Positions 137 to 17,074 of a stretch of 32,993 nt of DNA are shown piece by piece. The DNA lies in the NCBI GenBank assembly GCA_043777715.1, contig JAYWHL010000080.1:1-32993 (forward strand). Reading direction: 5' to 3'. Positions within the stretch are counted from its first letter, which is position 1. Each line of letters begins with the position of its first letter. The position numbers and the translations under genes are program-made. Origin of the DNA: Cytophagaceae bacterium. Its GTDB lineage: Bacteria; Bacteroidota; Bacteroidia; Cytophagales; Spirosomataceae. The notes under the pieces were generated by a model. The model did not search any database and had not been told where the DNA came from. It saw nothing but the letters and a program-made list of their open reading frames with translations.

Positions 137-1915
137 TTACTCATACATACTTCCAATCAACTTTTCATATTTTGCACCAATTGCTTTTCTTTTTAGCTTC
201 AATGTTGGAGTTAGTTCGCCTCCTTCAATTGTCATTAGTTGAGGTAATAATCTTATCTTTTTTACCTGTTCGTATTGGGCAATGTTTTTGTTAATTATTT
301 TTACCTCCTCTTCAATTTTGTCAATTACTTTTTTGTTCATTATCATCTCGGCATCAGTTGTATAATTGATTTCATTTTCTTCACAGAATGCTCTCACTGC
401 TTCAAAATTAAGTGCAACTATTGCCGACGGAAACTTTTGGCCTTCTCCCACCACAACGGCTTGTTCAATAAACAATGACTCTTTTAGTTTATTTTCTATG
501 CCTTGTGGAGCTACGTATTTACCTCCCGATGTTTTGAAAATTTCTTTCTTTCTGTCGGTTATTTTTAAATATTTGCCGTCTCTAAATTCCCCAATGTCTC
601 CCGTATGAAACCAACCGTCTTTGTCTATTACCTCGGCTGTAAGGTCTGGGCGGTTGTAGTAGCCTTTCATTATGTTTGGTCCCTTGGCTAGGATTTCTCC
701 ATCTTCTGCTATTTTTATTTCTACACTTGGAATAACCACCCCAACCGTTCCTATTTGTAAATTGATGGGGTCCACACAACTTGTTGTTAGCACAGGCGAG
801 GTTTCTGTAAGGCCATATCCTTCTGAAATTGGAATACCCGCTGCCCAAAATATGCGTAACAATCTCGGTTGTAAAGCTGCTGAACCCGAACTTATTACTT
901 TTATATTTCCCCCTAGGGCAGCTTTCCACTTAGAAAAAATGAGTTTTCTTGCTACTTTTAATTGTAAATCATACAAAAAGCCCATGTTTTGCATTGGGTC
1001 ATATTTTAGCCCTAAGTTCACAGCCCAAAAGAATATTTTTTTCTTTAAACCCTTCTGTTCCATACCTTTAGATACAATTTTATCATATACTTTTTCTAAA
1101 AGTCTCGGCACACTCGTAAAGGTATGTGGCTTTACTTCGTTTATATTTACGATGATGGTATCCATACTTTCGGCATAATAAATGGCTACGCCTAGCCTCA
1201 TGTAGATATACAAAACCGTTCTTTCGTATATATGGCAAAGTGGTAAAAAACTCAATGCTTTTTCTCCTTCACTAACTGGTATCATGGCAATTACGTTTTC
1301 TACATTGCTCATTACATTCCCATGCGATAGCATTACGCCTTTTGGGTTTCCTGTTGTTCCTGATGTATAAATTAATGTTAATAAATCGTCTGTACTTACT
1401 GCTTCTTTTAGTTTATCAAGGTCTGTTTGTTTTCCTTCGCTTCCGAGTTTTTTTACTTCATTCCAATTTCTTGCATTTTCTACTTCATCAAACGTAAAAA
1501 CTGCTTCAATTCCCTCAATATCTTTTATGGCTAAGTTTACTTTTTTGTATAAATCTTCGTTGGCCACAAAGATTATTTTTACGCCAGCATCTTTAAAGAT
1601 AAACTTATAGTCTTCAATGGTTATGGTGGGGTACATCGGTACCAATACGCCTCCAATTTGTTGTACGCCAAGGTCGATAAAGTTCCATTCTGGCCTATTG
1701 GGAGATATTACCGCCACTTTGTCGTTTTTGTTGATTCCTAGTTTTACGAGGCCATGGCTAATTGCATTGGCATTTTCTTGAAATGCTTTTGCTGAATATT
1801 TTATATACTCGCCATTTACTTTATTGGCCAAAACATCAGGTAAATCATATTTTGCTACATAATTGTCCATGAGGTCGAAGACCCTTCCATAATTTTTTTC
1901 TGCTCTGTTCTCCAT
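137..1915 (-). CDS. AMP-dependent synthetase/ligase, long-chain fatty-acid--CoA ligase-like
   Basis: 592-aa ORF. It carries the adenylate-forming (ANL) motifs YTSGTTGNPKGVMLSHGN, GYGLTETS and GWFHTGDIG...ITDRKKE. Confidence 0.9.
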   Translation of the reverse strand: MENRAEKNYGRVFDLMDNYVAKYDLPDVLANKVNGEYIKYSAKAFQENANAISHGLVKLGINKNDKVAVISPNRPEWNFIDLGVQQIGGVLVPMYPTITIEDYKFIFKDAGVKIIFVANEDLYKKVNLAIKDIEGIEAVFTFDEVENARNWNEVKKLGSEGKQTDLDKLKEAVSTDDLLTLIYTSGTTGNPKGVMLSHGNVMSNVENVIAMIPVSEGEKALSFLPLCHIYERTVLYIYMRLGVAIYYAESMDTIIVNINEVKPHTFTSVPRLLEKVYDKIVSKGMEQKGLKKKIFFWAVNLGLKYDPMQNMGFLYDLQLKVARKLIFSKWKAALGGNIKVISSGSAALQPRLLRIFWAAGIPISEGYGLTETSPVLTTSCVDPINLQIGTVGVVIPSVEIKIAEDGEILAKGPNIMKGYYNRPDLTAEVIDKDGWFHTGDIGEFRDGKYLKITDRKKEIFKTSGGKYVAPQGIENKLKESLFIEQAVVVGEGQKFPSAIVALNFEAVRAFCEENEINYTTDAEMIMNKKVIDKIEEEVKIINKNIAQYEQVKKIRLLPQLMTIEGGELTPTLKLKRKAIGAKYEKLIGSMYE

Positions 1916-1956
1916 AATTGATTAATATTGTTTTTTCAAGTTTAAATTTCCTTTTT

Positions 1957-1964
1957 CAAATTTA
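1957..1964 (-). promoter_or_regulatory. -7 box TAAATTTG (TAnnTTTG) upstream of the acyl-CoA ligase gene
   Basis: The reverse complement of caaattta is TAAATTTG, about 42 nt upstream of the ATG at 1915. Confidence 0.35.
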
Positions 1965-1984
1965 ATCAAATCTCTTTATTCATT

Positions 1985-2752
1985 ATGATTTATAACGATA
2001 TTTCCTTGACTATTAGCGGTGGTATTGCTCGTTTGATATTAAACAGGCCATCAGTTTTGAATGCCCTTAGCCCAAATTTAATGGCTGAATGGCTTGATGC
2101 TTTGCAAAAAATAAATGTGGATAAGTCTGTTAAAGTATTGATAGTGAGGGGCGAAGGTAGGGCGTGGTCGGCTGGGGTAGATTTACAAGCCCTTAACGAA
2201 AGCATAAAAGGCGGGCAATTTGCTGCCGACCAAATTTTGCTTGATGGTTGTGAGGTTATCCGATTAATGCAAAGCCTTGATGCTGTTACTATTGCTTGTG
2301 TAAATGGATTTTGTTTTACTGGTGCTACCGAAATGATGTTGGCTTTTGATTTGATTTATGCTGCCAACGAAGCCAAAATTGGCGATACGCATGCCAAATG
2401 GGGAATTGCTCCTAAGTGGGGAATGACGCAAAGACTTCCTTTGAGAGTTGGGTTATTAAAAGCCATGGAATTATCCTTTACGTGCGTACCTGTGAGCGGG
2501 CAAGAAGCCGAGCGTATTGGTTTGGTTAATAAGTCTTTGCCCTTGGCCGATCTTGATGCTTTTGTTGATGGCGTTGCTGCCCAAATTTGTAGTAATTCCG
2601 CCCAAACGATTGCTGCCATGAAAGCTCTTTATTATCAGGGTAGTTATGGGACTTTGAGCGATGGCATAAACATTGAATATAATGCCGATATTCAGATTTC
2701 TGACCGTGCTGAATTTTTGAAAGATTTTAAAGAAAATAAGTCAAAATCTTGA
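1985..2752 (+). CDS. enoyl-CoA hydratase/isomerase (crotonase) family protein
   Basis: 255-aa ORF with a crotonase-fold signature (VRGEGRAWSAGVDL, NGFCFTGATEM). It is divergent from the acyl-CoA ligase gene. Confidence 0.85.
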   Translation: MIYNDISLTISGGIARLILNRPSVLNALSPNLMAEWLDALQKINVDKSVKVLIVRGEGRAWSAGVDLQALNESIKGGQFAADQILLDGCEVIRLMQSLDAVTIACVNGFCFTGATEMMLAFDLIYAANEAKIGDTHAKWGIAPKWGMTQRLPLRVGLLKAMELSFTCVPVSGQEAERIGLVNKSLPLADLDAFVDGVAAQICSNSAQTIAAMKALYYQGSYGTLSDGINIEYNADIQISDRAEFLKDFKENKSKS

Positions 2753-2761
2753 TTTATTTTT

Positions 2762-2795
2762 AGTTATCCACATAGACTATTTTATGTGGATAACT
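2762..2795 (+). terminator. 13-bp perfect hairpin downstream of the crotonase gene; its arms are two inverted consensus DnaA boxes
   Basis: The arms are agttatccacata (2762-2774) and tatgtggataact (2783-2795), with an 8-nt loop, followed by ttgtttatt. TTATCCACA lies at 2764-2772 and TGTGGATAA at 2785-2793. Confidence 0.5.
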
Positions 2796-2838
2796 TTGTT
2801 TATTACATTTAACTTGCTGATAATGAATTATTTATAAT

Positions 2839-3984
2839 TTATTTTTTACTTACTTTTGCATCATTTCTATAATAACTTACTTCTTGGTTTCCGTCTGCAT
2901 AAACAATTAGTCCTTTTCCGTTTCTTTTATCATCTTTAAAATCTCCTACAAAAACATCTCCATTTGCATAAAAGTAGGTTCCCCGCCCGTTCATCAGATT
3001 ATTACTGAATGTTCCTTCATATCTATTTCCATTTCTAAAATAATAGATACCTTGTCCCGCTTTCCCCCCGTTCCTGAACTGTCCTTCATATTTTATATTT
3101 CCGTCTTTATAAAATTGTTTTCCGTGGCCGTGGCGTTGGCCTTCTTTCCATGTTCCCTCATATTTTTCTCCTGCTTCATGTACGAAAATACCTAGTCCCG
3201 TTACACAATCCCCATCCAAACACCCTGTTCTTATTGTCTTAATTTCGTTATTTTCTATTTCTTGTACCAGTACAATTGTTTCGGTTTCTGCTTTTTGTTG
3301 TTTTTCAACAGCCTCAGGTCGTTGAGTTACTTCGATTTTGGCATTTTTTTCTTCCTCTACGGGCTTATCTTCCTTAAATCGTGGGTATTGTTGTTCTGCT
3401 TCTTTCCAGCCCTTTTCGATGTACTGTAACCTCAAACTCCGTGGCGGGTGGGTGCTTGTACCAACTTCGTCTTGTAGTAATCGCATCGCTATCTGAGATT
3501 GTGCCAAATCAGCACCCATTTGATGCAGCACAAAGCCCGAAAATTTGTCAGCTTCTAGTTCTTTGTCAGGGCGACTTCCTTTGCCGTCTATGGTGTGGCC
3601 TTGTAAATGATGCCCCACTTCATGTGCCAAAATGCTTATGGCTGCCCAGTCTGTTTGTGCATCGTTTTCTACTCTTCTAAAAAACGCCCTGTCATACACC
3701 ACATACCTAACTCCTGCCATGGTGGTAGCAAAGCAATTATCAATATTGGGACATTCCATTACCACAAAATTTTTGTTGAGTCCTATGGGTTTTAATATCT
3801 TTTCTACTACTGCTTCGGCGTGTTTGTTGTTGCTAATATAACCTTGCATCTGGCATATTTTCTTATGGTCGATGTTGCCACCATAATATCTACAACCAAA
3901 GGTAAAAGTCTTATCTTGTGCTTTAATTTCTTGAAAAACATTACTTAAAACTATTAAAAAGGCAATTTTGATGCTAATTTTCAT
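2839..3984 (-). CDS. secreted HExxH zinc-metallopeptidase-like domain fused to C-terminal MORN repeats
   Basis: 381-aa ORF. It has an N-terminal signal peptide (MKISIKIAFLIVLSNVFQEIKAQ) and the motif LAHEVGHHLQGH followed by ELEADKFSG. An acidic/lysine-rich linker follows, then about 5 MORN-type repeats (YEGTWKEGQRHGHG, YEGQFRNGGKAGQG, YEGTFSNNLMNGRG, FVGDFKDDKRNGKG). Confidence 0.75.
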   Translation of the reverse strand: MKISIKIAFLIVLSNVFQEIKAQDKTFTFGCRYYGGNIDHKKICQMQGYISNNKHAEAVVEKILKPIGLNKNFVVMECPNIDNCFATTMAGVRYVVYDRAFFRRVENDAQTDWAAISILAHEVGHHLQGHTIDGKGSRPDKELEADKFSGFVLHQMGADLAQSQIAMRLLQDEVGTSTHPPRSLRLQYIEKGWKEAEQQYPRFKEDKPVEEEKNAKIEVTQRPEAVEKQQKAETETIVLVQEIENNEIKTIRTGCLDGDCVTGLGIFVHEAGEKYEGTWKEGQRHGHGKQFYKDGNIKYEGQFRNGGKAGQGIYYFRNGNRYEGTFSNNLMNGRGTYFYANGDVFVGDFKDDKRNGKGLIVYADGNQEVSYYRNDAKVSKK

Positions 3985-4023
3985 GCTTTTTTGATTGATA
4001 TTTTCTATGAATTGGGTAAAAAA

Positions 4024-4046
4024 AAAGAGAGCTAGTTGCTCTCTTT
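4024..4046 (-). terminator. intrinsic terminator after the TPR gene
   Basis: Stem aaagagagc/gctctcttt with loop tagtt. On the minus strand it is followed by a run of 9 T (plus-strand A-run at 4015-4023). Confidence 0.7.
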
Positions 4047-4062
4047 AATAAAGTTTTTTTTG

Positions 4063-5877
4063 TTAATTTATTGTATCGCCCCTTAAAATTCGATACCTTT
4101 TTCTAGCTTCCGAACCATACACACTACCTGGATATTTTATCAAAATTTCTTGGTATAGCTTCATAGCTTTTGCCTTATCATTTAGTTTTTCTTCTGTGAT
4201 GCTTGCCAATAAATACCTCGCATCGTCGGCCAGTACATCGTAACCATGGTCTTTTATGATACTTTCTAAACTCTGAATCGCACTTTCTATTTTGTTTTGT
4301 TTGAGTTCTGTTTTTGCTTTTAGCCACAAAACCTCATCTGCCAAAGGGTGAGAAGGGTATTTTCTGGTCATGGTTTCAAGGTTTTTTATGGCCTCTTCTG
4401 TTCGGTTCTGAAACAAAAGTAGTTCTATGGCTGCGTATTCTTTCATGGCCTGTTCGCTCGTGTCAAGGCCAATGTTATCTTGAATCAAAAGTCCTAAATC
4501 TAGGGCATCGTTTGCTATTTCACGGGTCGTAATAATTTTCAAAACGTCTAATATATCTTTTGCTAACTCAAAATTTCCCTCAAAATACCTCAATCTAGCG
4601 TTCCTGAGCTTGGCTTCGTTACCCATAGGGCTATCTTTTTCAGATTTTTCTACCTGTGCATATAATAAAGTTGCTTCCCAAGGCTCATTTTTAAGTAGGT
4701 AAATATCTCCTAAATCCAATTTACATTTATCCTTAAATTCTCTGTCCTGTCCACTCAATTCTATGGCTAAATTTAGTACCGATGTTGCTGTATCTTTTTC
4801 GTTTAGATAAAATGCGTAGAGGTTTGCGGTGTTTCTGAGTGCCTCTAAGGTTTTCTGATTTTTACCTAATTCATCAAACATTTTTTGATATTCTTTTATC
4901 AAAATCCTAATGTCTGATGCTATAATCGGGAACGTCGATTTGATAACTTCTTCTTTGGCACTTATCAACATCGTCCTAAACATCGGGTAGTTTTGACTTT
5001 TTGGATATTCTTTTACTAAATACTCAAAAATCGTTCCTGCTGCCTTGTAATCTTTGTTTTGTTTGGCCATAAAACCCAATTCCAACACCCTCGAACCCTC
5101 ATATTTGTATCTTTTGTCCAAGGCTTTGCACTGCACAAATGCCCTTCCAAACTCTTTTAACTGCACTAAATGCCAAATCAACATTTCGTTATAATAACTC
5201 TCGTTTGGGTATTTTTGTACCTTTTCATACAGTACTTTCTCTAGGGCATTTATGTCTTTTTCGTCTTTAAAAGTATCTTGTATCAACGCCTTTACTGCCA
5301 TTCTGTTTTCATAATCTTTTCCTAAATTCAGATATTCCTCTATCATGGGTTCTATTTGCCCAAGTTTTCTATACAGTTTTGCTATTTCGCTGGCATATTT
5401 GGTTTCGTCTTTTGCGTTTATTCTCCCAATTTTTAGTGTTTTAATTCCCCATTCAAATTGCTCGTTTTCATCAAAGTCTCTGGCCAACTCTTCTATTTGT
5501 TCACCAGTTTTGGCTGTTTTATCTAGTGCTTTTTCGTACAATTCCAGAGCTTCTTTGGTTTCTCCTTTTGCTTCCAACATTCTTGCCAATTCAACCAAAT
5601 AAACGGCATTATTTTCATTGTTTTTAATTTGTTTTTTTAAGAATTTTTCCGCCTCTTCTTTTTGGTTTAGTTTTTCTAAACAGTTCAAATATTTTTTGTG
5701 AATCCCTTTGGCCTGTTCTTTATTTTTGGCCAATTTTTGATAAATACTTTTCGCCTTTTCGTATTCTCCATTTTTTAGATATTCGTTTGCTATTTCGGCC
5801 TCTTGACCAAAAACTAGATTTCCTAAAAAAAAGAATCCCATTAAAAGCGGGACTAATTTATTTTTCAATTTTTCCAT
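4063..5877 (-). CDS. TPR-repeat protein with signal peptide
   Basis: 604-aa ORF with an N-terminal hydrophobic leader. It has many 34-residue helical repeats of TPR type (e.g. ANEYLKNGEYEKAKSIYQKLAK, ARMLEAKGETKEALELYEKAL). Confidence 0.7.
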   Translation of the reverse strand: MEKLKNKLVPLLMGFFFLGNLVFGQEAEIANEYLKNGEYEKAKSIYQKLAKNKEQAKGIHKKYLNCLEKLNQKEEAEKFLKKQIKNNENNAVYLVELARMLEAKGETKEALELYEKALDKTAKTGEQIEELARDFDENEQFEWGIKTLKIGRINAKDETKYASEIAKLYRKLGQIEPMIEEYLNLGKDYENRMAVKALIQDTFKDEKDINALEKVLYEKVQKYPNESYYNEMLIWHLVQLKEFGRAFVQCKALDKRYKYEGSRVLELGFMAKQNKDYKAAGTIFEYLVKEYPKSQNYPMFRTMLISAKEEVIKSTFPIIASDIRILIKEYQKMFDELGKNQKTLEALRNTANLYAFYLNEKDTATSVLNLAIELSGQDREFKDKCKLDLGDIYLLKNEPWEATLLYAQVEKSEKDSPMGNEAKLRNARLRYFEGNFELAKDILDVLKIITTREIANDALDLGLLIQDNIGLDTSEQAMKEYAAIELLLFQNRTEEAIKNLETMTRKYPSHPLADEVLWLKAKTELKQNKIESAIQSLESIIKDHGYDVLADDARYLLASITEEKLNDKAKAMKLYQEILIKYPGSVYGSEARKRYRILRGDTIN

Positions 5878-6015
5878 AAACCAATGTATTTATAATATAA
5901 TTTTTTTAAAAATCTTTATTTGTTATTCTTTATTAGCTCTGTTAATAAGTGCAAAACTATTTATTGGCTTTTACTTGACATCATTTTTAGGCTATTTATC
6001 TACTTTAAAATTAGT

Positions 6016-6024
6016 TTATCCACA
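6016..6024 (+). promoter_or_regulatory. perfect consensus DnaA box TTATCCACA
   Basis: Exact 9/9 match read directly from the sequence. Confidence 0.6.
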
Positions 6025-6173
6025 CCTAAAAACTTCAAAATCAGACATATAATTATTTATTAACTTATACAATTTATACCTATGTGCAAAACTTTACTGT
6101 TTTTTACTACTTTTTAAAGGTTAGTTTCTTGTGTTTTTGTTGTGGTTATTTTGGGCTTTTTCCCCAGAAAAAC

Positions 6174-6182
6174 TTATCCACA
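6174..6182 (+). promoter_or_regulatory. perfect consensus DnaA box TTATCCACA
   Basis: Exact 9/9 match read directly from the sequence. Confidence 0.6.
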
Positions 6183-6499
6183 TAAGTATTAAACATATCC
6201 ACCGTGGTTTGCCTTATTTCTTTTCACATTCAAAAGGCCATTTTTCCACCTTGTTAGGTTTTTTTCCACATTGTTCTCCACTTTAAACTATAATATTTTA
6301 AATATTGAATTGACCTTTTTTTAGTTAGAAGCTGTTTTAACTTTTGGTTTTAGGTCAAAATGAATTTGTTTTTTGTCCATACGCAGATTTTTTGAGCCGA
6401 AGTGGAACGTGCGTAGCATCGCTACGGACAACAAAAAATGAAAAGTATGGGCTGAAAACAACTCCTTTTAGAGCAAAAGAAATAAGTTACAACAGCTTC

Positions 6500-8134
6500 T
6501 TAATCTATTTCAATGTCATTTCCCACCAAATCAAAGTTCGATTTCAATACGATTTCATCAGGATAAAAAACGATTCTTTCTGGTTGAATGTATTTTTCGG
6601 GAATCCCTGTATCCCATTTTTTATTGTTATTTAAATCTTCAATCACTCTTATTTGATACACGCCTGTTTTCAACCATTCAAAATTATAAACTCTAGTAAA
6701 CTGTTCTTGAATCACTTTTTTAGAATTTTTGTCGATTAACTGAACGACGACTCCTGTTTTCGGATTCTTTGTTTTAACTTCTCCAGCAATCGTGCCATAA
6801 TTTTCCACTTCTTTTAATTTATATTCTTTTTCAAATGGTTTTAACGTATCTTTTTCTATTGATTGTATTGCCCCTTTTTGTATTTCAAAAGTTATAACTC
6901 GATTAAATTTTATAGATTTCTTTATTTCCAGTTCTGTTTTATTAGGATTCCATTTATAATCTTCGGTTTTTAATTCCACTTTTCTGAGGGTGTCTTCTGT
7001 TAATTTAATTTTTGATATATCTAAGAATGCCACGGGTTTTGTGAACTTTAGTTTGTATTCAAATTCTTTTAGATATTCAAAGTCATCATCTACATTTGGG
7101 CTTACTTCAAAGGCTTCTTTTACAGCTTCTTTTTTGGTTGGTACTCTAAACTTTAATTTTTGATCATGACTAAACTTGTTTCCTAGCGAGTCTATTACTT
7201 CAATTTTAACTTTTAAGGTATCATTCGTTTTTTGAGTATTATAAAACTTGAGGGTTTTGTTTTCTGAAATGATATATGGAATGCTATCTTTTTTATTTTC
7301 AAAATCAACTTTAAAATCCATAACTCCTTTTAGGTAGTCTATATAATAATAGTTTACCGAGTTTCTAGTTTTTAGAATTTTTTGTTTGATACCATCTGCC
7401 AAAAAAATATTTATTGCTAAATCAGTTTTGTTTTCTTTCAAATCCAAAGCATCTTTTTCAAATCCAATGTTTTCGTTTTCTGGATTATATAATAAATTAC
7501 TGTTGGCATCTCCAAGAGCAATAATTTGATATTTACCTGATTTTATATTATTGAGTTGAAATTTACCAGCACTGTCTGTTTTAATAAAATAGTAAGGTTT
7601 TTCTTTCTTAATGTTCAAAGTATCAGAATATACATACAAGCCAACTAAAATATCCAGTGCCGATTTGCCAGTTTGAATATTTTTTACCTGTCCTTCAACT
7701 TTTAGTGAATCTATCATTTTACCCGTGCTAAAAACCAACCTTACGTTTTTAGCAACATTTCCTTCTGACGCATCTTTTATGGCATCTCTAAAATTTAGGG
7801 AATAGGTTACGTCATTTTTAAATTCTTTATCAAACAAAATCGTTAGGCCCTTTGGATTTATTTTTTGGGTATATAAGCCTTCAATCGCTGGCGTTATCAA
7901 TAATTTTTGGGGTAAATTATCTATGGTTACATACTCATCAAATTCTAGTTCTACTTTCTTTTCTTTGAAACTCGTTGTTTGATTTAATGGGTACGTTCTT
8001 ACCAATTTTGGTAATATTTTATCTCGTTTCCCACCCGTTGGAGCAACTGGCTGCGCACAAGCATTGATTATTAAAACTACAATTATATAAATTAAGCTAT
8101 TTTTCATGTGTTTAAATAAAAACCCTCTGGTCAA
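6500..8134 (-). CDS. Ig-like (SbsA/Big-type) domain lipoprotein
   Basis: 544-aa ORF. It has a lipobox-like leader (LIINACAQPVAPTGGKRDKILP) and a beta-rich, K/N-rich body typical of Bacteroidota Ig-like domain lipoproteins. The true start may be the MKNSLIY methionine at 8107. Confidence 0.6.
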   Translation of the reverse strand: MTRGFLFKHMKNSLIYIIVVLIINACAQPVAPTGGKRDKILPKLVRTYPLNQTTSFKEKKVELEFDEYVTIDNLPQKLLITPAIEGLYTQKINPKGLTILFDKEFKNDVTYSLNFRDAIKDASEGNVAKNVRLVFSTGKMIDSLKVEGQVKNIQTGKSALDILVGLYVYSDTLNIKKEKPYYFIKTDSAGKFQLNNIKSGKYQIIALGDANSNLLYNPENENIGFEKDALDLKENKTDLAINIFLADGIKQKILKTRNSVNYYYIDYLKGVMDFKVDFENKKDSIPYIISENKTLKFYNTQKTNDTLKVKIEVIDSLGNKFSHDQKLKFRVPTKKEAVKEAFEVSPNVDDDFEYLKEFEYKLKFTKPVAFLDISKIKLTEDTLRKVELKTEDYKWNPNKTELEIKKSIKFNRVITFEIQKGAIQSIEKDTLKPFEKEYKLKEVENYGTIAGEVKTKNPKTGVVVQLIDKNSKKVIQEQFTRVYNFEWLKTGVYQIRVIEDLNNNKKWDTGIPEKYIQPERIVFYPDEIVLKSNFDLVGNDIEID

Positions 8135-8146
8135 GAGGGTTCATTA

Positions 8147-9040
8147 TTAGATTTTATTTTTTTCAATAACGTAAATCAGGCTGGAATATTCTTTACTTTT
8201 CATCGCTTTTATATTTGAAACAAATCCAGTCCACAAAGCACTAATCGGTTTCATTTTGCCCTCTTTGTATTTAGAACTTAATAAACTTACATAAAACGAA
8301 TCAAAATACATCGGAATTAAATCTATCACTTTTAGACCTTTCTTTTCAGTTAGATTTTTTATCGAATTTTGGTCAAAATGATACAAATGTCTCGGCAAAT
8401 CATAAGCCGCCCAATGTTCCTTATATTTTAGTGCATCATACGATTTATGATTAGGAACGGCAATAACCAATCTACCATTTTCGTCAAGTTTTTCAATTAA
8501 CCAATCTACCGTCTCGTCTAGGTCGTGAATATGTTCTAGTACGTGCCAAAGTGTTATTATTGAATATTTTTTGTCATTATTTTCTTGCTCTTTTGAAATG
8601 CTAATTTTGATATTCGTTTGTTCCTCAGCAATCTTTCTTGCATTATCATTTGGCTCAATTCCTGATATTTGCCAACCATTTGCTTTACATACTTCTAAAA
8701 ATCCTCCAGTTCCACAACCATAATCTAACAGCTTTTTTTCTCCTTTTTTATACTTGTCGATTAATTTCACTTTCTGCTTCAAGGCTATGTTTCTAACCAA
8801 GTGATAAACTTTTTCGAGTATTCCGTTCTTACGATTGGTGTGTGAAATGTACGTTTCAGATTCGTAATATTTGCCTATTTCGTTTTTGTTGGGTCTTGGA
8901 TTTGTAAATAAAAACCCACAGGAATTACATTTTACAATTATAAAATTTTCTTTACTAACTGTATTGTCTTTGGCTATTATAATGTTTTTATAACCTAAAT
9001 CATTACAAATTGGACAACTTTGAATAGTTTCTGATTGCAT
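8147..9040 (-). CDS. class I SAM-dependent methyltransferase with N-terminal Cys4 zinc ribbon
   Basis: 297-aa ORF with CPICN...CNSCG cysteine pairs and SAM motif I LLDYGCGTGGF. Its start codon overlaps the mnmG stop codon by 1 nt (TAATG on the minus strand, 9038-9042). Confidence 0.8.
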   Translation of the reverse strand: MQSETIQSCPICNDLGYKNIIIAKDNTVSKENFIIVKCNSCGFLFTNPRPNKNEIGKYYESETYISHTNRKNGILEKVYHLVRNIALKQKVKLIDKYKKGEKKLLDYGCGTGGFLEVCKANGWQISGIEPNDNARKIAEEQTNIKISISKEQENNDKKYSIITLWHVLEHIHDLDETVDWLIEKLDENGRLVIAVPNHKSYDALKYKEHWAAYDLPRHLYHFDQNSIKNLTEKKGLKVIDLIPMYFDSFYVSLLSSKYKEGKMKPISALWTGFVSNIKAMKSKEYSSLIYVIEKNKI

Positions 9041-10905
9041 TATCTACCTAAATATATGATGATGATTGAAATATCTGATGGCGAAACACCGCTTATTCTC
9101 GAAGCCTTTCCTATTGAACTCGGTTTTATTTTCTTTAATTTTTGACGTGCTTCTATCGAAATGGCTTTTAATTTATCGTAATCAAATGTTGCTGGAATTT
9201 CAAGATTTTCAAATTTTGTTTGCTTTTCAACGTTACTCTGCTCTCTTTTTATATAGCTTTCGTATTTAATATTAATCTCGGTTTGCTCCTTTTCTTCTTC
9301 TTTAAACAACTCGTTTACCATCTCTTTTATATCCTGCCTTAAACCTATAATTTGATTTATCGAAAGCTCTGGTCTCTTTAATAAATTTATCAAATTCGTT
9401 CCCTCTTTTAATATTGTTGAATTTAATAACTCCAAACCCTCATTCACTTCCTCTGGTTTTATCTTTGTTACTTCCAAGTATATGCTTAGTTTTTGAACTT
9501 GTTCTTTTTTATGATTTACTTTTTCTAATTGCTTATTGCTCGCCAATCCTACATCAAATCCTTTTTGGGTTAATCTTATATCGGCATTATCTTGTCTTAA
9601 CAAAGTTCTGTACTCTGCTCTTGAGGTAAACATTCTATAAGGCTCGTCTGTACCTTTATTTATTAGGTCATCTATCAAAACCCCTATGTAAGCCTCGCTC
9701 CTACTCAACACAAATTTTCCTTTTTTATTTGCCTTTTGGTGAGCATTTATTCCTGCCATTAGTCCCTGACAAGCTGCTTCTTCGTACCCAGTTGTACCAT
9801 TTATTTGCCCTGCAAAAAATAAATTTTGTATTAATTTAGTTTCCAAAGTATCCTCTAATTGCGTTGGAGGAAAATAATCATATTCTATTGCGTAGCCAGG
9901 CCTAAACATTTTCACATTTTCAAAACCTGGAATCAACTTCAATGCTTGAAACTGTATTTCCTCTGGTAACGATGTCGAAAATCCATTTACATACATTTCT
10001 TCTGTATCCCAGCCTTCTGGTTCCACAAATATTTGGTGTCTGTCTTTATCTGCAAATCTATTTATTTTATCTTCAACTGAAGGGCAGTATCTCGGGCCAA
10101 GTCCTTTTATTCTTCCTGCAAACATTGGAGATTTATCAAAACCTTCTCTTAGTTTTTCATGAACTGCCTCATTAGTATAGGTTATCCAACAACTCCTTTG
10201 CTTTTCAAGGGCTTTCGTGTCCGAGTATGAAAATTTGGTTGGAATTTCATCACCTTTTTGTTCCTCCATTTTAGAATAATCCAAACTCCTACCATCTACT
10301 CTTGGTGGCGTACCTGTTTTCATTCTGCCTGATTCAAACCCTAATATTACCAATTGTTCGGTTAATCCACTTGCCGATTTTTCTGCTGTTCTTCCACCGC
10401 TAAAGTTTTTCTCCCCAATATGTATCTTGCCATTTAGGAAAGTTCCATTTGTTAATATTACAGTTTTGGCTTTTATTTCCAATCCCATTTGAGTTATTAC
10501 TCCTATCGCTTTATTATCCTCAATAATCAGATTTATAACGGTTTCTTGCCAAAAATCCACATTTTTATTCTGTTCTAGGGTATCTCTCCATTTTTTTGCA
10601 AACAACATTCTATCACTCTGACATCTAGGACTCCACATTGCCGGCCCTTTTGATTTATTCAACATTCTAAATTGTATCATTGATTCGTCTGAAATTATCC
10701 CAGATTTACCACCCAAAGCATCAATTTCTCTCACAATTTGACCTTTTGCAACGCCTCCCATTGCAGGATTGCACGACATTTGTGCAATGTTATTCATGTT
10801 CATTGTTATCAAAAGCGTCTTGCTTCCCATTGCCCCTGCGGCGTGTGCTGCCTCACACCCAGCATGGCCACCCCCCACTACGATTACATCATATAATTCA
10901 AACAT
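9040..10905 (-). CDS. mnmG: tRNA uridine-5-carboxymethylaminomethyl(34) synthesis enzyme MnmG (GidA)
   Basis: 621-aa ORF. It has the FAD-binding N-terminus YDVIVVGGGHAGCEAA, and SCNPAMGG, GPRYCPS and FFAGQINGTTGYEEAA motifs conserved along the full length. Confidence 0.97.
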   Translation of the reverse strand: MFELYDVIVVGGGHAGCEAAHAAGAMGSKTLLITMNMNNIAQMSCNPAMGGVAKGQIVREIDALGGKSGIISDESMIQFRMLNKSKGPAMWSPRCQSDRMLFAKKWRDTLEQNKNVDFWQETVINLIIEDNKAIGVITQMGLEIKAKTVILTNGTFLNGKIHIGEKNFSGGRTAEKSASGLTEQLVILGFESGRMKTGTPPRVDGRSLDYSKMEEQKGDEIPTKFSYSDTKALEKQRSCWITYTNEAVHEKLREGFDKSPMFAGRIKGLGPRYCPSVEDKINRFADKDRHQIFVEPEGWDTEEMYVNGFSTSLPEEIQFQALKLIPGFENVKMFRPGYAIEYDYFPPTQLEDTLETKLIQNLFFAGQINGTTGYEEAACQGLMAGINAHQKANKKGKFVLSRSEAYIGVLIDDLINKGTDEPYRMFTSRAEYRTLLRQDNADIRLTQKGFDVGLASNKQLEKVNHKKEQVQKLSIYLEVTKIKPEEVNEGLELLNSTILKEGTNLINLLKRPELSINQIIGLRQDIKEMVNELFKEEEKEQTEINIKYESYIKREQSNVEKQTKFENLEIPATFDYDKLKAISIEARQKLKKIKPSSIGKASRISGVSPSDISIIIIYLGR

Positions 10906-11105
10906 TTTTTAGACTTTTAAATTTAAACGTTTCACGTGGAAACCTTTTTAAAATAATATTTTTCGATTAAAATAAGAGATGTAAAATTAAAGATAAAGAA
11001 TGATAAACCAGTAAGTAAAATCATAATAAACCATAAAATTTAAGATGATTAAAGAAAATTTAAAATCATTGTGTATATTAGTACAGAAAACTTAAACAAA
11101 TAAAA

Positions 11106-12584
11106 ATGAAATACATAGGAGCAATTGACCAAGGAACAACGAGTACAAGGTTTATCGTATTTGACAAAAAAGGAAACATAATTGTATCAGCACAAAAAGA
11201 ACATGAACAGATTTTTCCGAAAGCTGGCTGGGTTGAACATAATCCAAAAGAAATTTGGGTAAATACTAAAGAAGTTATAAACGAGGGTTTGAGAAAAGGA
11301 GATTTGACAACAGATAACATTGAGGCAATCGGAATTACAAACCAACGTGAAACGGCGGTATTGTGGAATAAAACAACAGGGGAATATTATTATAATGCGA
11401 TAGTTTGGCAGGACACAAGAGTGGAAAGCATGGTGAAAGAACTACTAATAAGTGGAGTTGAACCCTTGGTAAAGAAAAAAACAGGACTGCCATTGGCAAC
11501 TTATTTTAGTGGATTAAAAATAAAATGGATTATCGAAAATGTTAAAAATATTAAGGAAGATATAGAAAAAGGAGAAGTCTGTTTTGGAAATATGGATACT
11601 TTTTTGTTGTGGAAATTGACAGGAGAATTTAAAACAGACGTTACAAATGCAAGTAGAACTCAATTAATGAATTTAGAAACACTAGATTGGGATAATGAAA
11701 TATTAGAAATATTTGGAATACCTAGGCAAATTTTACCACAAATTGTGTCTTCGAGCGAAATTTATGGTAAATGTAACGGAGTTTTAGATGGAGTTAGGGT
11801 TGCTGGTATTTTAGGAGATCAGCAAGCGGCTTTGGTTGGACAAACTTGTTTTGAAGTTGGAGAAGCAAAAAATACGTATGGTACTGGTTGTTTTATGTTG
11901 ATGAATACGGGCGAAAAAATTGTACCATCACAATACGGATTATTAACAACGGTTGCTTATAAATTTGGAAACGAACCAGCAAAATATGCTTTGGAAGGTT
12001 CGGTGGCAATAGCTGGGGCTTTGGTACAATGGTTGCGTGATAATTTGGGAATTATTGAAAAAAGTTCTGATATTGAAGAATTGGCAAAAAAGGTAGAGGA
12101 CAATGGTGGCTGTTATTTTGTGCCTGCATTTTCTGGGTTGTATGCCCCCTATTGGAAAATGGATGCAAGAGGAACGCTGGCAGGTATGACCAGATATACA
12201 AACAAATATCATATTGCAAGGGCAGCATTAGAAGCTACGGCTTTTCAAACAATGGAAGTTTTGGAAGCAATGGAAAAAGATTCAAATGTTAAGATAAAAA
12301 GTTTACAAGTTGATGGCGGAATGACGATTAATGAAATTCTGATGCAATTTCAATCAGATATTGTGGAAGTAACTGTTACTAGGCCAATTGTGATAGAAAC
12401 AACAGCACTTGGAGCAGCGTACTCAGCAGGGTTGGCGGTTGGATATTGGAGTGATTTGGATAATCTAAAACAAAATTGGGGAATAGATAAACAATGGTTT
12501 CCAAAGATGGAGGTAGAAATATTAGATGAAAAGAAAAAATATTGGAAAAAAGCGATTGAAAAATCAATGGATTGGATTGATTAG
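11106..12584 (+). CDS. glpK: glycerol kinase
   Basis: 492-aa ORF. N-terminus [22 protein letters not shown]-family motifs ITNQRET and [10 protein letters not shown], and NTYGTGCF, are present. Confidence 0.97.
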
Positions 12585-12602
12585 AATATACAATAAAAAT
12601 CC

Positions 12603-12610
12603 TAAATTTG
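12603..12610 (+). promoter_or_regulatory. -7 box TAAATTTG upstream of the thioredoxin-fold gene
   Basis: Exact TAnnTTTG match 41 nt upstream of the ATG at 12651. The TTG at 12577-12579 is a slightly over-spaced -33 candidate. Confidence 0.35.
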
Positions 12611-12650
12611 AGTTGGAATAAAAATCTGAAATTTAAATTTAAAAAAGATT

Positions 12651-13265
12651 ATGAAAAAAATACTGAACAATACAATCAAAATGGGAATACTAGCATTACT
12701 CCTGTTTCCGATGATGTCATTCAAAAATGAGCCACAAAAACCTATTGATGGAAATAGTAAAATACAATGGCTTACGATTGAAGAAGCATACAAAAGATGG
12801 CAAAAAGAACCTCGAAAATTTGTGATTGATGTTTATACGGATTGGTGCGGTTGGTGCAAAGTGATGGACAAAAATACTTTTATGAATCAGACGGTAGCCG
12901 ATTTTGTAAATAGGTCTTATTATCCTGTAAAACTAAACGCCGAGCAAAGAGCAGACATAACTCTAGGTACACAGGTTTATAAATTTGTTGATAATGGCCA
13001 AGGCGGTGGCGTACATCAATTGGGAGCTTCGTTACTTAATAATCAGCTAAGTTATCCAACCGTTGTATTCCTTGACGAAAAAATGGGTATGATACAACCA
13101 GTTCCAGGTTACAGAGATGCACTTGAGTTTCATCAATTACTAACTTATTTCCAAGGGAATTATAATAGGATTGAGCAATTTGATAAATACAAAACAGAAA
13201 CTTATTTACAAATATATGCCACAACCAAACCTGTTGTAGAAGCAGTTAAGGAAGCAGGTCATTGA
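12651..13265 (+). CDS. secreted thioredoxin-fold protein (CxxC)
   Basis: 204-aa ORF with a signal peptide and a DWCGWCK redox motif in a thioredoxin-like context. Confidence 0.7.
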   Translation: MKKILNNTIKMGILALLLFPMMSFKNEPQKPIDGNSKIQWLTIEEAYKRWQKEPRKFVIDVYTDWCGWCKVMDKNTFMNQTVADFVNRSYYPVKLNAEQRADITLGTQVYKFVDNGQGGGVHQLGASLLNNQLSYPTVVFLDEKMGMIQPVPGYRDALEFHQLLTYFQGNYNRIEQFDKYKTETYLQIYATTKPVVEAVKEAGH

Positions 13266-13282
13266 ATTTAAGTTAAGAAAAC

Positions 13283-13316
13283 AAAAAAAGCCATTCAAAT
13301 TTGAATGGCTTTTTTT
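13283..13316. terminator. bidirectional intrinsic terminator between convergent genes
   Basis: A7-agccattcaaa/tttgaatggct-T7 forms a perfect 11-bp palindromic stem flanked by A and T runs. It lies between the thioredoxin-fold gene (+) and the DUF349 gene (-). Confidence 0.85.
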
Positions 13317-13332
13317 GTTTTAAATCAGATTA

Positions 13333-14598
13333 CTATTCTTCTAAAAGTTTATTCAGAACATCTCTTAATTCAATCAAAATCATATCTTTTACAGCAACTT
13401 TCCTTTTTTGAGTATTTGCCTTACGTTCGGTTTCTTGGTCAAGTTTAGCTCCTGGGTAAGCATAAGCATCGAGTTCGTTTTTCTCTTTTTTAACCAAATA
13501 ATCCATTTGATGAATTTGGATTTTGAGTTGGTCTCTTTTCGGTTTATCCAAAAAATCGGGGTGTCTATAACTAATTACACGCATGAGATAATTCATCTCA
13601 AAAACTTTATCACAAGCAATTCTAAAACGATTTGAGAGAGCGTAATCTATATCACGGGTTTTGAGCGTAAGTTTTTTCCAATCGTTTAGTAAGGCCTTAG
13701 CACGGTCGGCGGCAACATTAATATCTGGACGATATGGTAACGATTCGGCTTCGGTTGCCATTTTTTGTGCTTCTTCCAAGAATGGATTAACCCTTGGCTT
13801 AGGCGTAATCCCTTTAACTTTGTTGTATCTCCAAAAGAAGTTATCGTTTGCTCGCTTAAACATTCTCCACAAATCTTTTTTGCGTTTTGGCGGGAGGTCA
13901 GACGGAAGCGTTCGGTATTGTTGTTGAATCTTTTTGATTTCTTCAAATCCAGCATCTACATCAGGAGAATTTCTTAATTCCTCTACCCTTTTGATGAGCG
14001 TTTCAGCAAAAGCGATGTATTCGTCAATCTTTCTATTTTTCTCGATAAAGAACTCCCTCCTATTTTGAAAAAAAGTATCAGTGTGTAACTGAAACTGGCC
14101 TTCAACTTCTTCTTCGTATTGTTTTTCGACGGGGCCAGTTTTCAACCATTTATTTTTCAGTTCGGCCATTTCTTCAGAAGCGATATTCCAGTCGGTTCTT
14201 TCCGAAATTACCCTAACGTCTTCAACCAAGGCTCGTTTAATTTCTAAATTCTTTACTTGGTTATTATTAATCAAACCTTTCAAGTCTATTTCCAAAACAT
14301 CTAGCTTTTCGAGCAAAGGTATAAAGTTGCCTAGACCGTCAAACTCTATCAAAACTTTACGTAATTGTAAAAGTTTGGTTAGATAAGACCCTTTGTTTTG
14401 AGCTTCTTCAACTTGTTGATGTAATAAATCTACTTTACCCTCGGCAATTGAAAAACGATTTCTAAAATATTGAAGTGCTTCTTCGGGCGTTCGGCGAACT
14501 TCGCCAATTTGTCTATCAGGAAAACCTGAATAACCATTTAAAAAAACAAGGCCGTCTTTAATGTAGCCAAATTCATCTTGGATTTGAATATTTTCCAT
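13333..14598 (-). CDS. DUF349-like helical repeat protein
   Basis: 421-aa highly charged helical ORF. It has recurring W/F-containing repeat units (NKWLKTGPV...QF, DLWRMFKRANDNFFWRY, LLNDWKKL) resembling DUF349 repeats. Confidence 0.55.
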   Translation of the reverse strand: MENIQIQDEFGYIKDGLVFLNGYSGFPDRQIGEVRRTPEEALQYFRNRFSIAEGKVDLLHQQVEEAQNKGSYLTKLLQLRKVLIEFDGLGNFIPLLEKLDVLEIDLKGLINNNQVKNLEIKRALVEDVRVISERTDWNIASEEMAELKNKWLKTGPVEKQYEEEVEGQFQLHTDTFFQNRREFFIEKNRKIDEYIAFAETLIKRVEELRNSPDVDAGFEEIKKIQQQYRTLPSDLPPKRKKDLWRMFKRANDNFFWRYNKVKGITPKPRVNPFLEEAQKMATEAESLPYRPDINVAADRAKALLNDWKKLTLKTRDIDYALSNRFRIACDKVFEMNYLMRVISYRHPDFLDKPKRDQLKIQIHQMDYLVKKEKNELDAYAYPGAKLDQETERKANTQKRKVAVKDMILIELRDVLNKLLEE

Positions 14599-14924
14599 GG
14601 ATTAGATGTGATAAGTTGATGGGTTAGAAAAATAATAGGTAACGTAAACTAATAAAACGTTTTAAAAATATATGAGTTAAATGACAATAAAGTTTTTTGG
14701 AAATAACGTGTTGAGTTTTTTATAACACAAAAAAAAGAGGAGAATAAAAATTTTAAATTATTTTTAGTAGAAAGGTCGAAGAAAGACTCAGAATTTAGAC
14801 CCGAAACCCATGAAAACTAAAATAAAACCTCAATTTTGAAAAAAACAGTAAAAACAAGCAACATCGAAACCAATAACTTTCCATTTTTGCAATAATATTA
14901 CAAATAAATAAAAAATAATACTAA

Positions 14925-16592: not shown

Positions 16593-16611
16593 AACCCTTA
16601 ACAAAACAATC

Positions 16612-17040
16612 ATGGAAATTTTATTAACCCTCCACTCCTACCTCCGTTATGTGATTATTGCCTTGGCTGGATACACATTGGTAAAAGCAATAATGAACAA
16701 ATCAGAATTTGAAGAAAGCCAACGCAAAAGCACCCTATTTTTGATGGTTAGTAGCGACATCATGTTATTGATTGGCCTCGTACTTTATTTTGGAAATGGC
16801 TGGTTTCAGCAATTGACAACAAACCCTGATGCAATGAAAGATGCCAGCATCAGAAAATTTTCGCTAGAACACGCCCTACTAATGATTATCGCTTGGGTGC
16901 TGGTACACGTGGCCTATGCCAAAGTAAAAAAAGGCGTTGGCACAATCAAGGCCAACAAAACAGTAATGATATTTGTAGGTTTGGCCACAGTAATTGTTTT
17001 GGTAGCCATACCTTGGACCATGAGACCAGCCTTTAGATAA
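16612..17040 (+). CDS. small integral membrane protein, function unknown
   Basis: 142-aa ORF with about 4 predicted hydrophobic helices. It is tightly spaced between ettA and the acyl-CoA dehydrogenase gene on the same strand. Confidence 0.5.
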   Translation: MEILLTLHSYLRYVIIALAGYTLVKAIMNKSEFEESQRKSTLFLMVSSDIMLLIGLVLYFGNGWFQQLTTNPDAMKDASIRKFSLEHALLMIIAWVLVHVAYAKVKKGVGTIKANKTVMIFVGLATVIVLVAIPWTMRPAFR

Positions 17041-17074
17041 TCAGAAGAGACCATCAACAAACAACAAGAAAAAT

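Follow-up and report, generated by a model that had tools for sequence, protein, structure and literature searches.

The results of this analysis suggest that the intergenic gap at positions 5878-6499 of the DNA examined here is probably the core of a chromosomal origin of replication (oriC); the wider claim, that the origin region of the chromosome lies in this neighbourhood, is considerably safer. The DNA is a 33-kb window (32,993 nucleotides; "the window" refers to this whole stretch) on a metagenome contig from an uncultured Spirosomataceae bacterium (Cytophagales), and homologues of its TPR protein assign it to the Cytophagales, family Spirosomataceae. The locus displays an enrichment of DnaA boxes, conservation in relatives, the architecture of a distinctive module at one end of the box array, origin polarity in the surrounding DNA and identity with the Runella locus recorded in the DoriC database. 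The gap and its neighbours are arranged as follows.

4063-5877, minus strand: TPR gene, flanking the gap
5878-6499, no strand assigned: candidate oriC gap between the TPR gene and the Big_5 gene, the longest gap, with 12 DnaA boxes in an array shared by relatives
6500-8134, minus strand: Big_5 gene, flanking the gap on the other side
8147-9040, minus strand: methyltransferase gene, between the Big_5 gene and mnmG
9040-10905, minus strand: mnmG (gidA), first gene of the mnmG-methyltransferase-Big_5 unit, with transcription toward the array

The gap is 622 bp long and is the longest intergenic region of the window, as had been noted in a preliminary description; the next longest measures 326 bp. 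mnmG, named there as a neighbour of the candidate oriC, is indeed located 2.7 kb from the array, with two genes between, and mnmG-methyltransferase-Big_5 synteny is kept in all 80 GTDB loci with enough upstream sequence. A search of the window for dnaA found none, in agreement with the same description, and dnaA is also absent from all 80 loci and from the DNA past the window's right edge. The lack of dnaA and of a local gene-orientation switch had been listed as caveats, and neither is a problem: in the Flavobacteriaceae Mariniflexile litorale and Algorimicrobium, Ori-Finder predicts an oriC that lies beside mnmG, is distant from dnaA and agrees with the skew (PMC11278836, PMC12843772), so the absence of dnaA is to be expected here. 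These predictions concern the same phylum as the window but a different class. Rfam and tRNA scans of the window yielded no RNA family and no tRNA, and matches in a sigma-70 promoter scan were below chance, with a model that is unsuited to Bacteroidota. An inverted repeat (6327-6382/6445-6500) was considered as a structured RNA or terminator and rejected, its fold z-score (-1.0) not being significant.

The DnaA boxes of the gap, and a satellite site elsewhere in the window, are listed below.

2762-2795, no strand assigned: satellite DnaA site AGTTATCCACATA-n8-TATGTGGATAACT, two perfect inverted boxes (2764/2785) that form a 13-bp palindrome, in the convergent ECH/M48-MORN gap
5940-5958, minus strand: decayed reverse box pair, TGTTAATAA (2 mismatches) and GTGCAAAAC, homologous to CTGTGGATATGTGGATAA of relatives
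6016-6024, plus strand: perfect DnaA box TTATCCACA, 0 mismatches
6083-6091, minus strand: reverse DnaA box TGTGCAAAA, 2 mismatches
6141-6149, minus strand: reverse DnaA box TGTGGTTAT, 2 mismatches
6174-6182, plus strand: perfect DnaA box TTATCCACA, in the repeat unit AAACTTATCCAC, which recurs 21 bp later
6195-6203, plus strand: DnaA box ATATCCACC, 2 mismatches
6242-6250, plus strand: DnaA box TTTTCCACC, 2 mismatches, within the 15-nt unit TTTTTCCACCTTGTT, repeated after 20 bp
6262-6282, plus strand: tandem pair TTTTCCACA-ttg-TTCTCCACT, both boxes in one orientation with a 3-bp spacing, forming the conserved core of the unwinding-type module (1 mismatch at 6262-6270, 2 at 6274-6282)

DnaA boxes are clustered in the gap far above chance. 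Twelve boxes with no more than two mismatches (2 perfect and 10 others) were counted where 2.5 are expected, and two perfect boxes where 0.007 are expected, neither count being reached in any of 2000 shuffles; for boxes with at most one mismatch, the gap holds 3 against an expectation of 0.19 (P = 0.0005). Shuffles of the window that preserve dinucleotides contain 0.40 +/- 0.64 perfect boxes (no more than 3 in any of 300), and the window itself contains five. The six same-strand boxes reported previously were all found in place (two perfect, one with 1 mismatch and three with 2), as was the single inverted box at 6141-6149; further boxes missing from that account include the reverse or variant ones at 5940 and 6083, together with those at 5996, 6158 and 6373 (2 mismatches), and the second perfect pair at 2764/2785. 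Box-containing units, also unremarked there, are spaced at 20-21 bp, or about two helical turns. The direct repeat gtgcaaaact, reported at 5949 and 6084, is real, and alignment with relatives identifies it with a decayed reverse DnaA-box pair, the intact counterpart of which (CTGTGGATATGTGGATAA) is a tandem reverse pair at the TPR-proximal end of the relatives' arrays. A second repeat, TTTTACT, had been counted three times; only two copies lie in the gap (5969 and 6102), and its frequency in the window (16, with 14.6 expected) is that of chance.

The end of the array facing the Big_5 gene has a particular organization, and the features involved, with a further unstable segment of the gap, are the following.

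5887-5926, no strand assigned: least stable 40-mer of the whole window, adjoining the TPR start
6283-6304, plus strand: A/T tract, 95% A/T, directly after the tandem pair, candidate unwinding element
6305-6317, plus strand: conserved 13-mer TTGAATTGACCTT, in which GACCTT is invariant

The last two boxes had been described as 3 bp apart and as abutting an almost pure A/T stretch (6283-6310), and this description holds, the stretch being 93-95% A/T. Judged by sequence-based stability, 6283-6304 provides the melt-prone A/T element that an oriC is expected to have beside its boxes. Three of the window's 12 least stable 40-mers lie in the gap (6284-6323, 6039-6078 and 5887-5926), the first of them ranking 9th in the window; the segment at 5887-5926 may represent the promoter of the TPR gene or else another block prone to melting. 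A module of about 65 bp is kept at the Big_5 end of the array, in the order box, 3 bp, box, about 10 bp, T-rich tract, GACCTT. Across 11 aligned sequences that represent at least six genera, TCCAC of both boxes and TT of the second box are invariant, the two boxes have the same orientation and are spaced by exactly 3 bp throughout, and the T-rich tract is followed by ...ATTGACCTT. The equivalent of 6283-6304 is T-rich on the box strand in relatives. The 13-mer TTGAATTGACCTT is exact in the window, in loci L004 and L033 and in about 17 Emticicia-type loci, and its identity persists even though the TPR proteins are only 55-60% identical; close variants are present in locus L003, Larkinella and Rhodocytophaga, always at about -440 to -510 from the TPR start. 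The module has thus been retained while the non-coding DNA around it has diverged.

The published definition of a basal unwinding system (BUS) asks for a box with no more than two mismatches, optionally followed at no more than 3 bp by a second box in the same orientation (up to four mismatches), and for at least three consecutive NAN DnaA-trios starting within 16 bp of a box (PMC8287927). The boxes at 6262-6270 and 6274-6282 lie 3 bp apart on one strand, as this definition describes, and three NAN trios (ATA ATA TTT on the box strand) are found 7 bp past the proximal box; this is the smallest number that passes, and 77% of shuffles of the same 60 bp and 39% of random window positions also pass the trio test, which is therefore uninformative in such A/T-rich DNA. 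The trios show no GAT-type periodicity. In its arrangement, the predicted module corresponds to the basal unwinding system (PMC8287927, PMC6669920).

The array is not peculiar to this genome. It was examined in 86 orthologous loci, 80 from GTDB species genomes and 6 from other assemblies, and most of them carry it at the same place, between the Big_5 and TPR genes on the downstream side of mnmG; the loci come from more than 10 genera and range from 30 to 56% GC. Across the 80 loci, box density peaks sharply just once, within the 750 bp that precede the TPR gene, and no other sharp peak occurs within +/-10 kb. The 500 bp nearest to the TPR gene contain about two perfect and about six one-mismatch boxes per locus, compared with about 0.02 and 0.1, respectively, in each 250 bp of background. 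The array is present in Arcicella, Flectobacillus, Siphonobacter, Larkinella, Runella, Rhodocytophaga and Xanthocytophaga, is present in a weaker form in Emticicia, and is also found in Fulvivirga, in Microscilla (12 perfect boxes) and in a Thermonemataceae MAG (19 perfect boxes); the window's own array, with two perfect boxes, is weaker than those of many relatives. In Microscilla, the array stays at the Big_5|TPR junction even though mnmG is not adjacent or upstream. Smaller box peaks are seen in the 80 loci in intergenic regions downstream of the TPR gene, and the pair at 2764/2785 belongs among these; its site is kept at +3079 to +3111 in loci L003 and L004.

A link to a cultured member of the family is provided by Runella slithyformis DSM 19594, for which DoriC lists a predicted oriC (ORI94030393) with a BUS module at 2,001,477-2,001,511 (PMC8287927, supplement file 3). 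The complement of this module reads TTTTCCACA-tat-TTGTACACA-t-CTTTTCCTCATA, and it has four matches in all the DNA fetched, each of them upstream of the TPR start of a Runella locus (-457 to -537). The module maps nowhere else, which makes the locus studied here the one already catalogued, as a prediction, as the oriC of a cultured member of the family. The DoriC match is a match to a prediction built on the same kind of evidence. Runella and the window share the family Spirosomataceae, the locus and the orientation of the boxes; the architecture is common to both but the sequence is not, and Runella lacks TTGAATTGACCTT.

Around the array, the DNA has the polarity of an origin, and the leading strand is rich in purines (A>T). 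Neither raw GC skew nor cumulative skew is informative at the gap, both being dominated by the coding strand, and G/C skew at fourfold sites is small and inconsistent between genera, with the exception of Arcicella. The A/T asymmetry at fourfold sites, by contrast, tracks the DNA strand and not gene orientation. On the plus strand of the window, T exceeds A in every gene from 137 to 10905, including the single plus-strand gene, and A exceeds T from 11106 to about 30 kb in genes of both orientations, with one exception. The flip occurs in every genus group, including groups with co-oriented genes on both sides. As the sign of the A/T asymmetry alone cannot tell an origin from a terminus, rRNA operons were used as an independent indicator. 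A complete rRNA operon lies 5 kb beyond the TPR start in Larkinella and is transcribed away from the array; in Flectobacillus roseus, Arcicella aurantiaca and two further Larkinella, the 5' ends of 16S genes are found at contig ends, 5-10 kb past the TPR start, and all read away from the array. Some 70% of the genes in the window, taken together with its left extension, are oriented away from the switch, and in Arcicella the fourfold-site G/C asymmetry shows G>C on the side marked as leading by A>T.

The switch itself is not located at the array. Its position was estimated from fourfold A/T sites by a likelihood change-point model that has one term for the coding strand and one for the side, and two features lie there in the window.

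10906-11105, no strand assigned: divergent mnmG/FGGY-kinase gap, in which the fourfold A/T asymmetry flips with origin polarity
10930-10942, no strand assigned: palindrome TTTCACGTGGAAA, 25 bp upstream of the mnmG start codon, family consensus GTTYCACGTGRAAC

A change-point at the 5' boundary of mnmG beats a boundary at the gap by 31.8 log-likelihood units, placing the switch (at about 10.9-11.1 kb) 4.7 kb from the array. In 42 of the 51 full-length loci the model puts the change-point where the mnmG transcription unit begins, and in one locus at the array; the change-point moves with the beginning of that unit, which lies at about -4.0 kb for Emticicia, about -5.8 kb for Arcicella and -7.0 kb for locus L090, so that the distance between switch and array ranges from 4.0 to 7.0 kb according to the genome. 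The three genes between array and switch have the composition of the TPR-side replichore, and a 3.7-kb ORF-free stretch between the Big_5 gene and the array in Xanthocytophaga (A 1378, T 1081) has the TPR-side sign. The non-coding DNA of locus L074 agrees with a switch away from the array, and in Arcicella the fourfold G/C asymmetry also flips at the mnmG-unit start. Block-specific codon bias was considered as the cause of the offset and rejected: a bias of about +0.2 toward A (in Fulvivirga, where the flanks are alike) is too small. In Microscilla marina, which has an array without an adjacent mnmG, strand asymmetry is too weak to place the switch. The offset between array and switch is real and reproducible. 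The preliminary description had stated that a skew switch elsewhere, with a better box cluster, would speak against an origin in the gap; the switch observed here lies 4.7 kb off and is not accompanied by any box cluster. Canonical boxes with at most one mismatch number 0.17 per 300 bp at the switch, versus 8.7 per 600 bp in the array.

This offset leads to the main rival reading, in which the origin is split or displaced, the array being its DnaA-recruiting half or a reservoir, and leading and lagging strands diverging 4-7 kb away at the promoter of the mnmG operon. We regard this reading as possible but rather unlikely. The behaviour of the change-point in the window and in the 42 loci favours it, as do the concordant signals from Arcicella fourfold G/C sites and L074 non-coding DNA. 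It also draws on the palindrome: GTTYCACGTGRAAC is conserved at the switch in one or two copies across loci, it occurs 78 times in 1.46 Mb, with 68 of these copies immediately upstream of mnmG, and its half-site, TTCCACG, is a box variant enriched in the array. Strand divergence in the Cytophagales might, on this evidence, take place at the GTTYCACGTGRAAC-marked start of the mnmG operon and not at the array, with palindrome halves that resemble weak inverted DnaA boxes, a proposal that we advance only tentatively and consider doubtful. If true, it would imply one of two arrangements: an origin in separate parts that extends across the mnmG-methyltransferase-Big_5 operon, or a leading strand that starts away from the site of DnaA assembly. 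To our knowledge, neither has been described for any bacterial chromosome, and we know of no origin that parts its boxes from its unwinding site by 4-7 kb. Bipartite origins are known in Bacillus subtilis and Helicobacter pylori (PMC3479198). Against a split or displaced origin, the switch lacks canonical DnaA boxes, the window has a single copy of the palindrome, and the conserved module of tandem boxes and T-tract sits in the array. The ybeY-mnmG spacer is short (only 58-140 bp in several genomes), with the look of an ordinary promoter with operators and no consistent A/T block. The GTTYCACGTGRAAC palindrome is, to judge from these sequences, most probably a regulator site. The region upstream of mnmG was also considered as an origin by itself and rejected, being promoter-like, with a short spacer and without boxes.

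The array could, alternatively, be an origin-proximal locus that titrates or recycles DnaA, of the datA, DARS or B. subtilis DBC type, with the origin elsewhere, a reading already raised in the preliminary description; in view of the offset, an auxiliary role of this kind is conceivable, but we consider it improbable. Such loci resemble the array in being dense clusters of high-affinity boxes, the compositional switch does not coincide with the cluster, and satellite box clusters occur in several neighbouring intergenic regions. The array is, however, the sole box cluster within +/-10 kb in the 80 GTDB loci, and the only other one in the 33-kb window is the small 2764/2785 pair. In addition, the array contains a conserved unwinding-type module, and the DoriC/BUS analysis chose this locus as the oriC of Runella.

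The boxes might also be transcription-factor sites that merely place the TPR promoter under DnaA regulation. The array does lie upstream of the TPR start, and transcriptional regulation by DnaA has precedents, such as the gidA promoter of Pseudomonas aeruginosa (PMC13438810). We find this very unlikely: a simple operator does not need 9-17 boxes over 300-600 bp, the most conserved module sits at the far end of the array, about 400-450 bp upstream of the TPR start, and the neighbourhood has origin polarity. As for a replication terminus, T>A marks the leading strand in most bacteria, a rule under which the sign of the switch would mean converging forks, and the locus lies at 49-56% of four chromosome-scale assemblies, but this reading is hardly credible, as it would put the rRNA operons of three genera (Larkinella, Flectobacillus and Arcicella) and about 70% of the genes of the window and its extension head-on to replication, finds no dif-like motif (ATAA-N6-TTAT) clustered at the switch, runs against the G>C of Arcicella on the side marked leading by A>T, and is at odds with the other assemblies, which place the locus at 28%, 29%, 36% and 99.5%. 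Assembly start points are therefore arbitrary, and the position of the locus in chromosome-scale assemblies was for this reason rejected as a proxy for its distance from dnaA.

The reading of the gap as the core of oriC, proposed from the window alone in the preliminary description, is thus strengthened by the conserved array, which forms the sole sharp box peak within +/-10 kb, by its tandem-box/T-tract module, by a switch of origin polarity within 5 kb, by rRNA operons that point away and by a Runella module found at this locus only. DnaA would bind here, occupying the two perfect boxes and the weaker boxes of the same orientation, several of which are about two helical turns apart. A DnaA oligomer may then extend from the terminal tandem pair (6262-6282) onto the A/T tract at 6283-6304, bounded by TTGAATTGACCTT. 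The duplex would open at this putative unwinding site for helicase loading, as in the basal unwinding system of B. subtilis and other bacteria, and replication would start from an active origin. The perfect inverted pair at 2764-2793 may serve as an origin-proximal satellite DnaA site, like the clusters downstream of the TPR gene in relatives.

The origin call itself is ordinary, as it concerns the same locus as the predicted origin of a cultured relative. Its interest would lie in making the Big_5|TPR junction downstream of mnmG a conserved origin locus across the Cytophagales, of use for orienting MAGs, for growth-rate (peak-to-trough) estimates and for the construction of oriC shuttle plasmids like those of Cytophaga hutchinsonii. 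For a phylum in which experimental work on origins is very scarce, the 65-bp module supplies a defined sequence on which to assay unwinding. The offset and the palindrome might be the sole aspects likely to surprise a specialist; if the offset marks the true site of fork divergence, the 4-7 kb involved would bear on the separability of DnaA assembly and replisome establishment.

In E. coli, oriC lies between mnmG/gidA and mioC, far from dnaA. The candidate origin resembles it in being linked to mnmG and unlinked from dnaA, and in having a box in the TTATCCACA orientation that faces the unwinding element. The differences are that mnmG abuts the E. coli origin and is transcribed away from it, whereas here it is 2.7 kb off, transcribed toward the array and separated from it by two genes, and that the window has neither GATC/SeqA-type clustering nor 13-mer repeats. 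The oriC of C. hutchinsonii in DoriC (ORI30030113, at about 4.058 Mb) was confirmed with replicative oriC plasmids by Xu et al. (2012), as cited in PMC3531139. It belongs to the same order and is likewise based on DnaA boxes, and it is evidently not at position 1 of the sequence; its published BUS string has no match in any of the fetched loci. The bipartite origins of H. pylori and B. subtilis, each split by a gene (PMC3479198), recall the window in that clusters of DnaA boxes are parted by genes (here the main array and the clusters after the TPR or M48 genes), but their subregions flank dnaA and are about 1.4 kb apart, whereas the intervening genes of the window are unrelated to replication. 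The basal unwinding system of B. subtilis incC consists of DnaA boxes 6 and 7, DnaA-trios and an AT-rich 27-mer (PMC6669920, PMC8287927). The window differs from it in having no clear GAT-type trio repeat and no GC-rich spacer, in a tract that is bounded by the conserved GACCTT and in flanking genes other than dnaA and dnaN. In both, two like-oriented boxes with a spacing of at most 3 bp sit at the array's edge, directly before an A/T-rich tract, and an upstream gene reads toward the unwinding side.

The strand-bound asymmetry between A and T at fourfold-degenerate sites changes sign where the mnmG transcription unit begins, at its 5' end (10906-11105). This point is 4-7 kb away from the DnaA-box array; in the related loci (L003-L090) it lies at about -4 to -7 kb relative to the TPR gene start. 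The sign change occupies this position in the window as well as in 42 of 51 related loci, and in composition the mnmG-methyltransferase-Big_5 block matches the TPR-side replichore. The region upstream of mnmG also carries a conserved 14-bp palindrome, GTT(T/C)CACGTG(G/A)AAC, located 25-100 bp from the start of the gene and often present in two copies, with a spacing of 40-50 bp. Examples are as follows (negative positions are relative to the TPR gene start):

Window, 10930-10942: palindrome upstream of mnmG
L073, -5056 and -5011: two copies upstream of mnmG
L043, -4112 and -4074: two copies upstream of mnmG

In a search of 1.46 Mb, 68 of the 78 matches to this motif were found at the position upstream of mnmG. 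Its half-sites are similar to weak DnaA boxes, and the palindrome is probably a regulator's operator. The mnmG gene itself is irregular in two metagenome-assembled genomes (MAGs): no gene is called in its slot in L089 (Thermonemataceae, 4416-6605), and it is broken into two ORFs in L043 (Emticicia, about 5956-7819). These cases probably reflect frameshifts or assembly errors rather than real gene loss. In Microscilla marina (L088), a gene resembling that for the major vault protein and a TetR gene are found upstream, in place of mnmG.

Perfect DnaA boxes are also present outside the main gap, and the Big_5 end of that gap contains a long repeat:

2116-2124, minus strand: fifth perfect DnaA box, within the enoyl-CoA hydratase gene
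2762-2795: a pair of perfect DnaA boxes, inverted relative to each other, AGTTATCCACATA ... TATGTGGATAACT, forming a 13-bp perfect palindrome
6327-6382 and 6445-6500: imperfect inverted repeat with arms of 56 nt that are 75% complementary

Counting the box at 2116-2124, none of the five perfect boxes in the 33-kb window lies outside 2116-6182. The inverted pair sits in the 86 bp that separate the enoyl-CoA hydratase gene from the M48/MORN gene, which converge on it; it is kept in the two closest relatives, and could also be used as a bidirectional terminator hairpin. The long repeat lies between the conserved 13-mer at 6305-6317, which follows the A/T tract of the array, and the Big_5 stop codon, and its fold stability is not above that of shuffled sequences (z = -1.0). 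It is probably the Big_5 terminator region, because a close relative (L004) carries an unrelated hairpin at the equivalent place. In Xanthocytophaga flavus (L074), Big_5 and the box array are separated by 3.7 kb (5711-9400) with no ORF of more than 114 aa, for which no Rfam match, similarity to the other loci or tandem repeats were found. Immediately downstream of the TPR gene, M. marina carries a tandem run of nine paralogous genes (12020-17666), each encoding about 134 aa and lacking a Pfam match.

In Larkinella, Flectobacillus and Arcicella, an rRNA operon is located 5-10 kb from the array and is transcribed away from it (L064, 15131-20252; also the ends of L012, L014, L061 and L067), and this operon accounts for the breaks that many draft contigs show at that point. 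No rRNA was found across the 33 kb of the window. Two chromosome-scale assemblies, L053 (Emticicia sp. SJ17W-69) and L090, have a contig boundary that is separated from the TPR gene by about 27-32 kb in the direction of mnmG. Such a boundary would be consistent with assemblies rotated so that dnaA comes first, which would put dnaA some 30 kb away from the origin.

In the window, the genes for DUF349 and ABC-F (13333-16592) lie on the side of mnmG; in L004 (16436-19447) they are inverted and found on the TPR side. Inversions across the origin region are common around bacterial origins, and this swap is an inversion of that kind.
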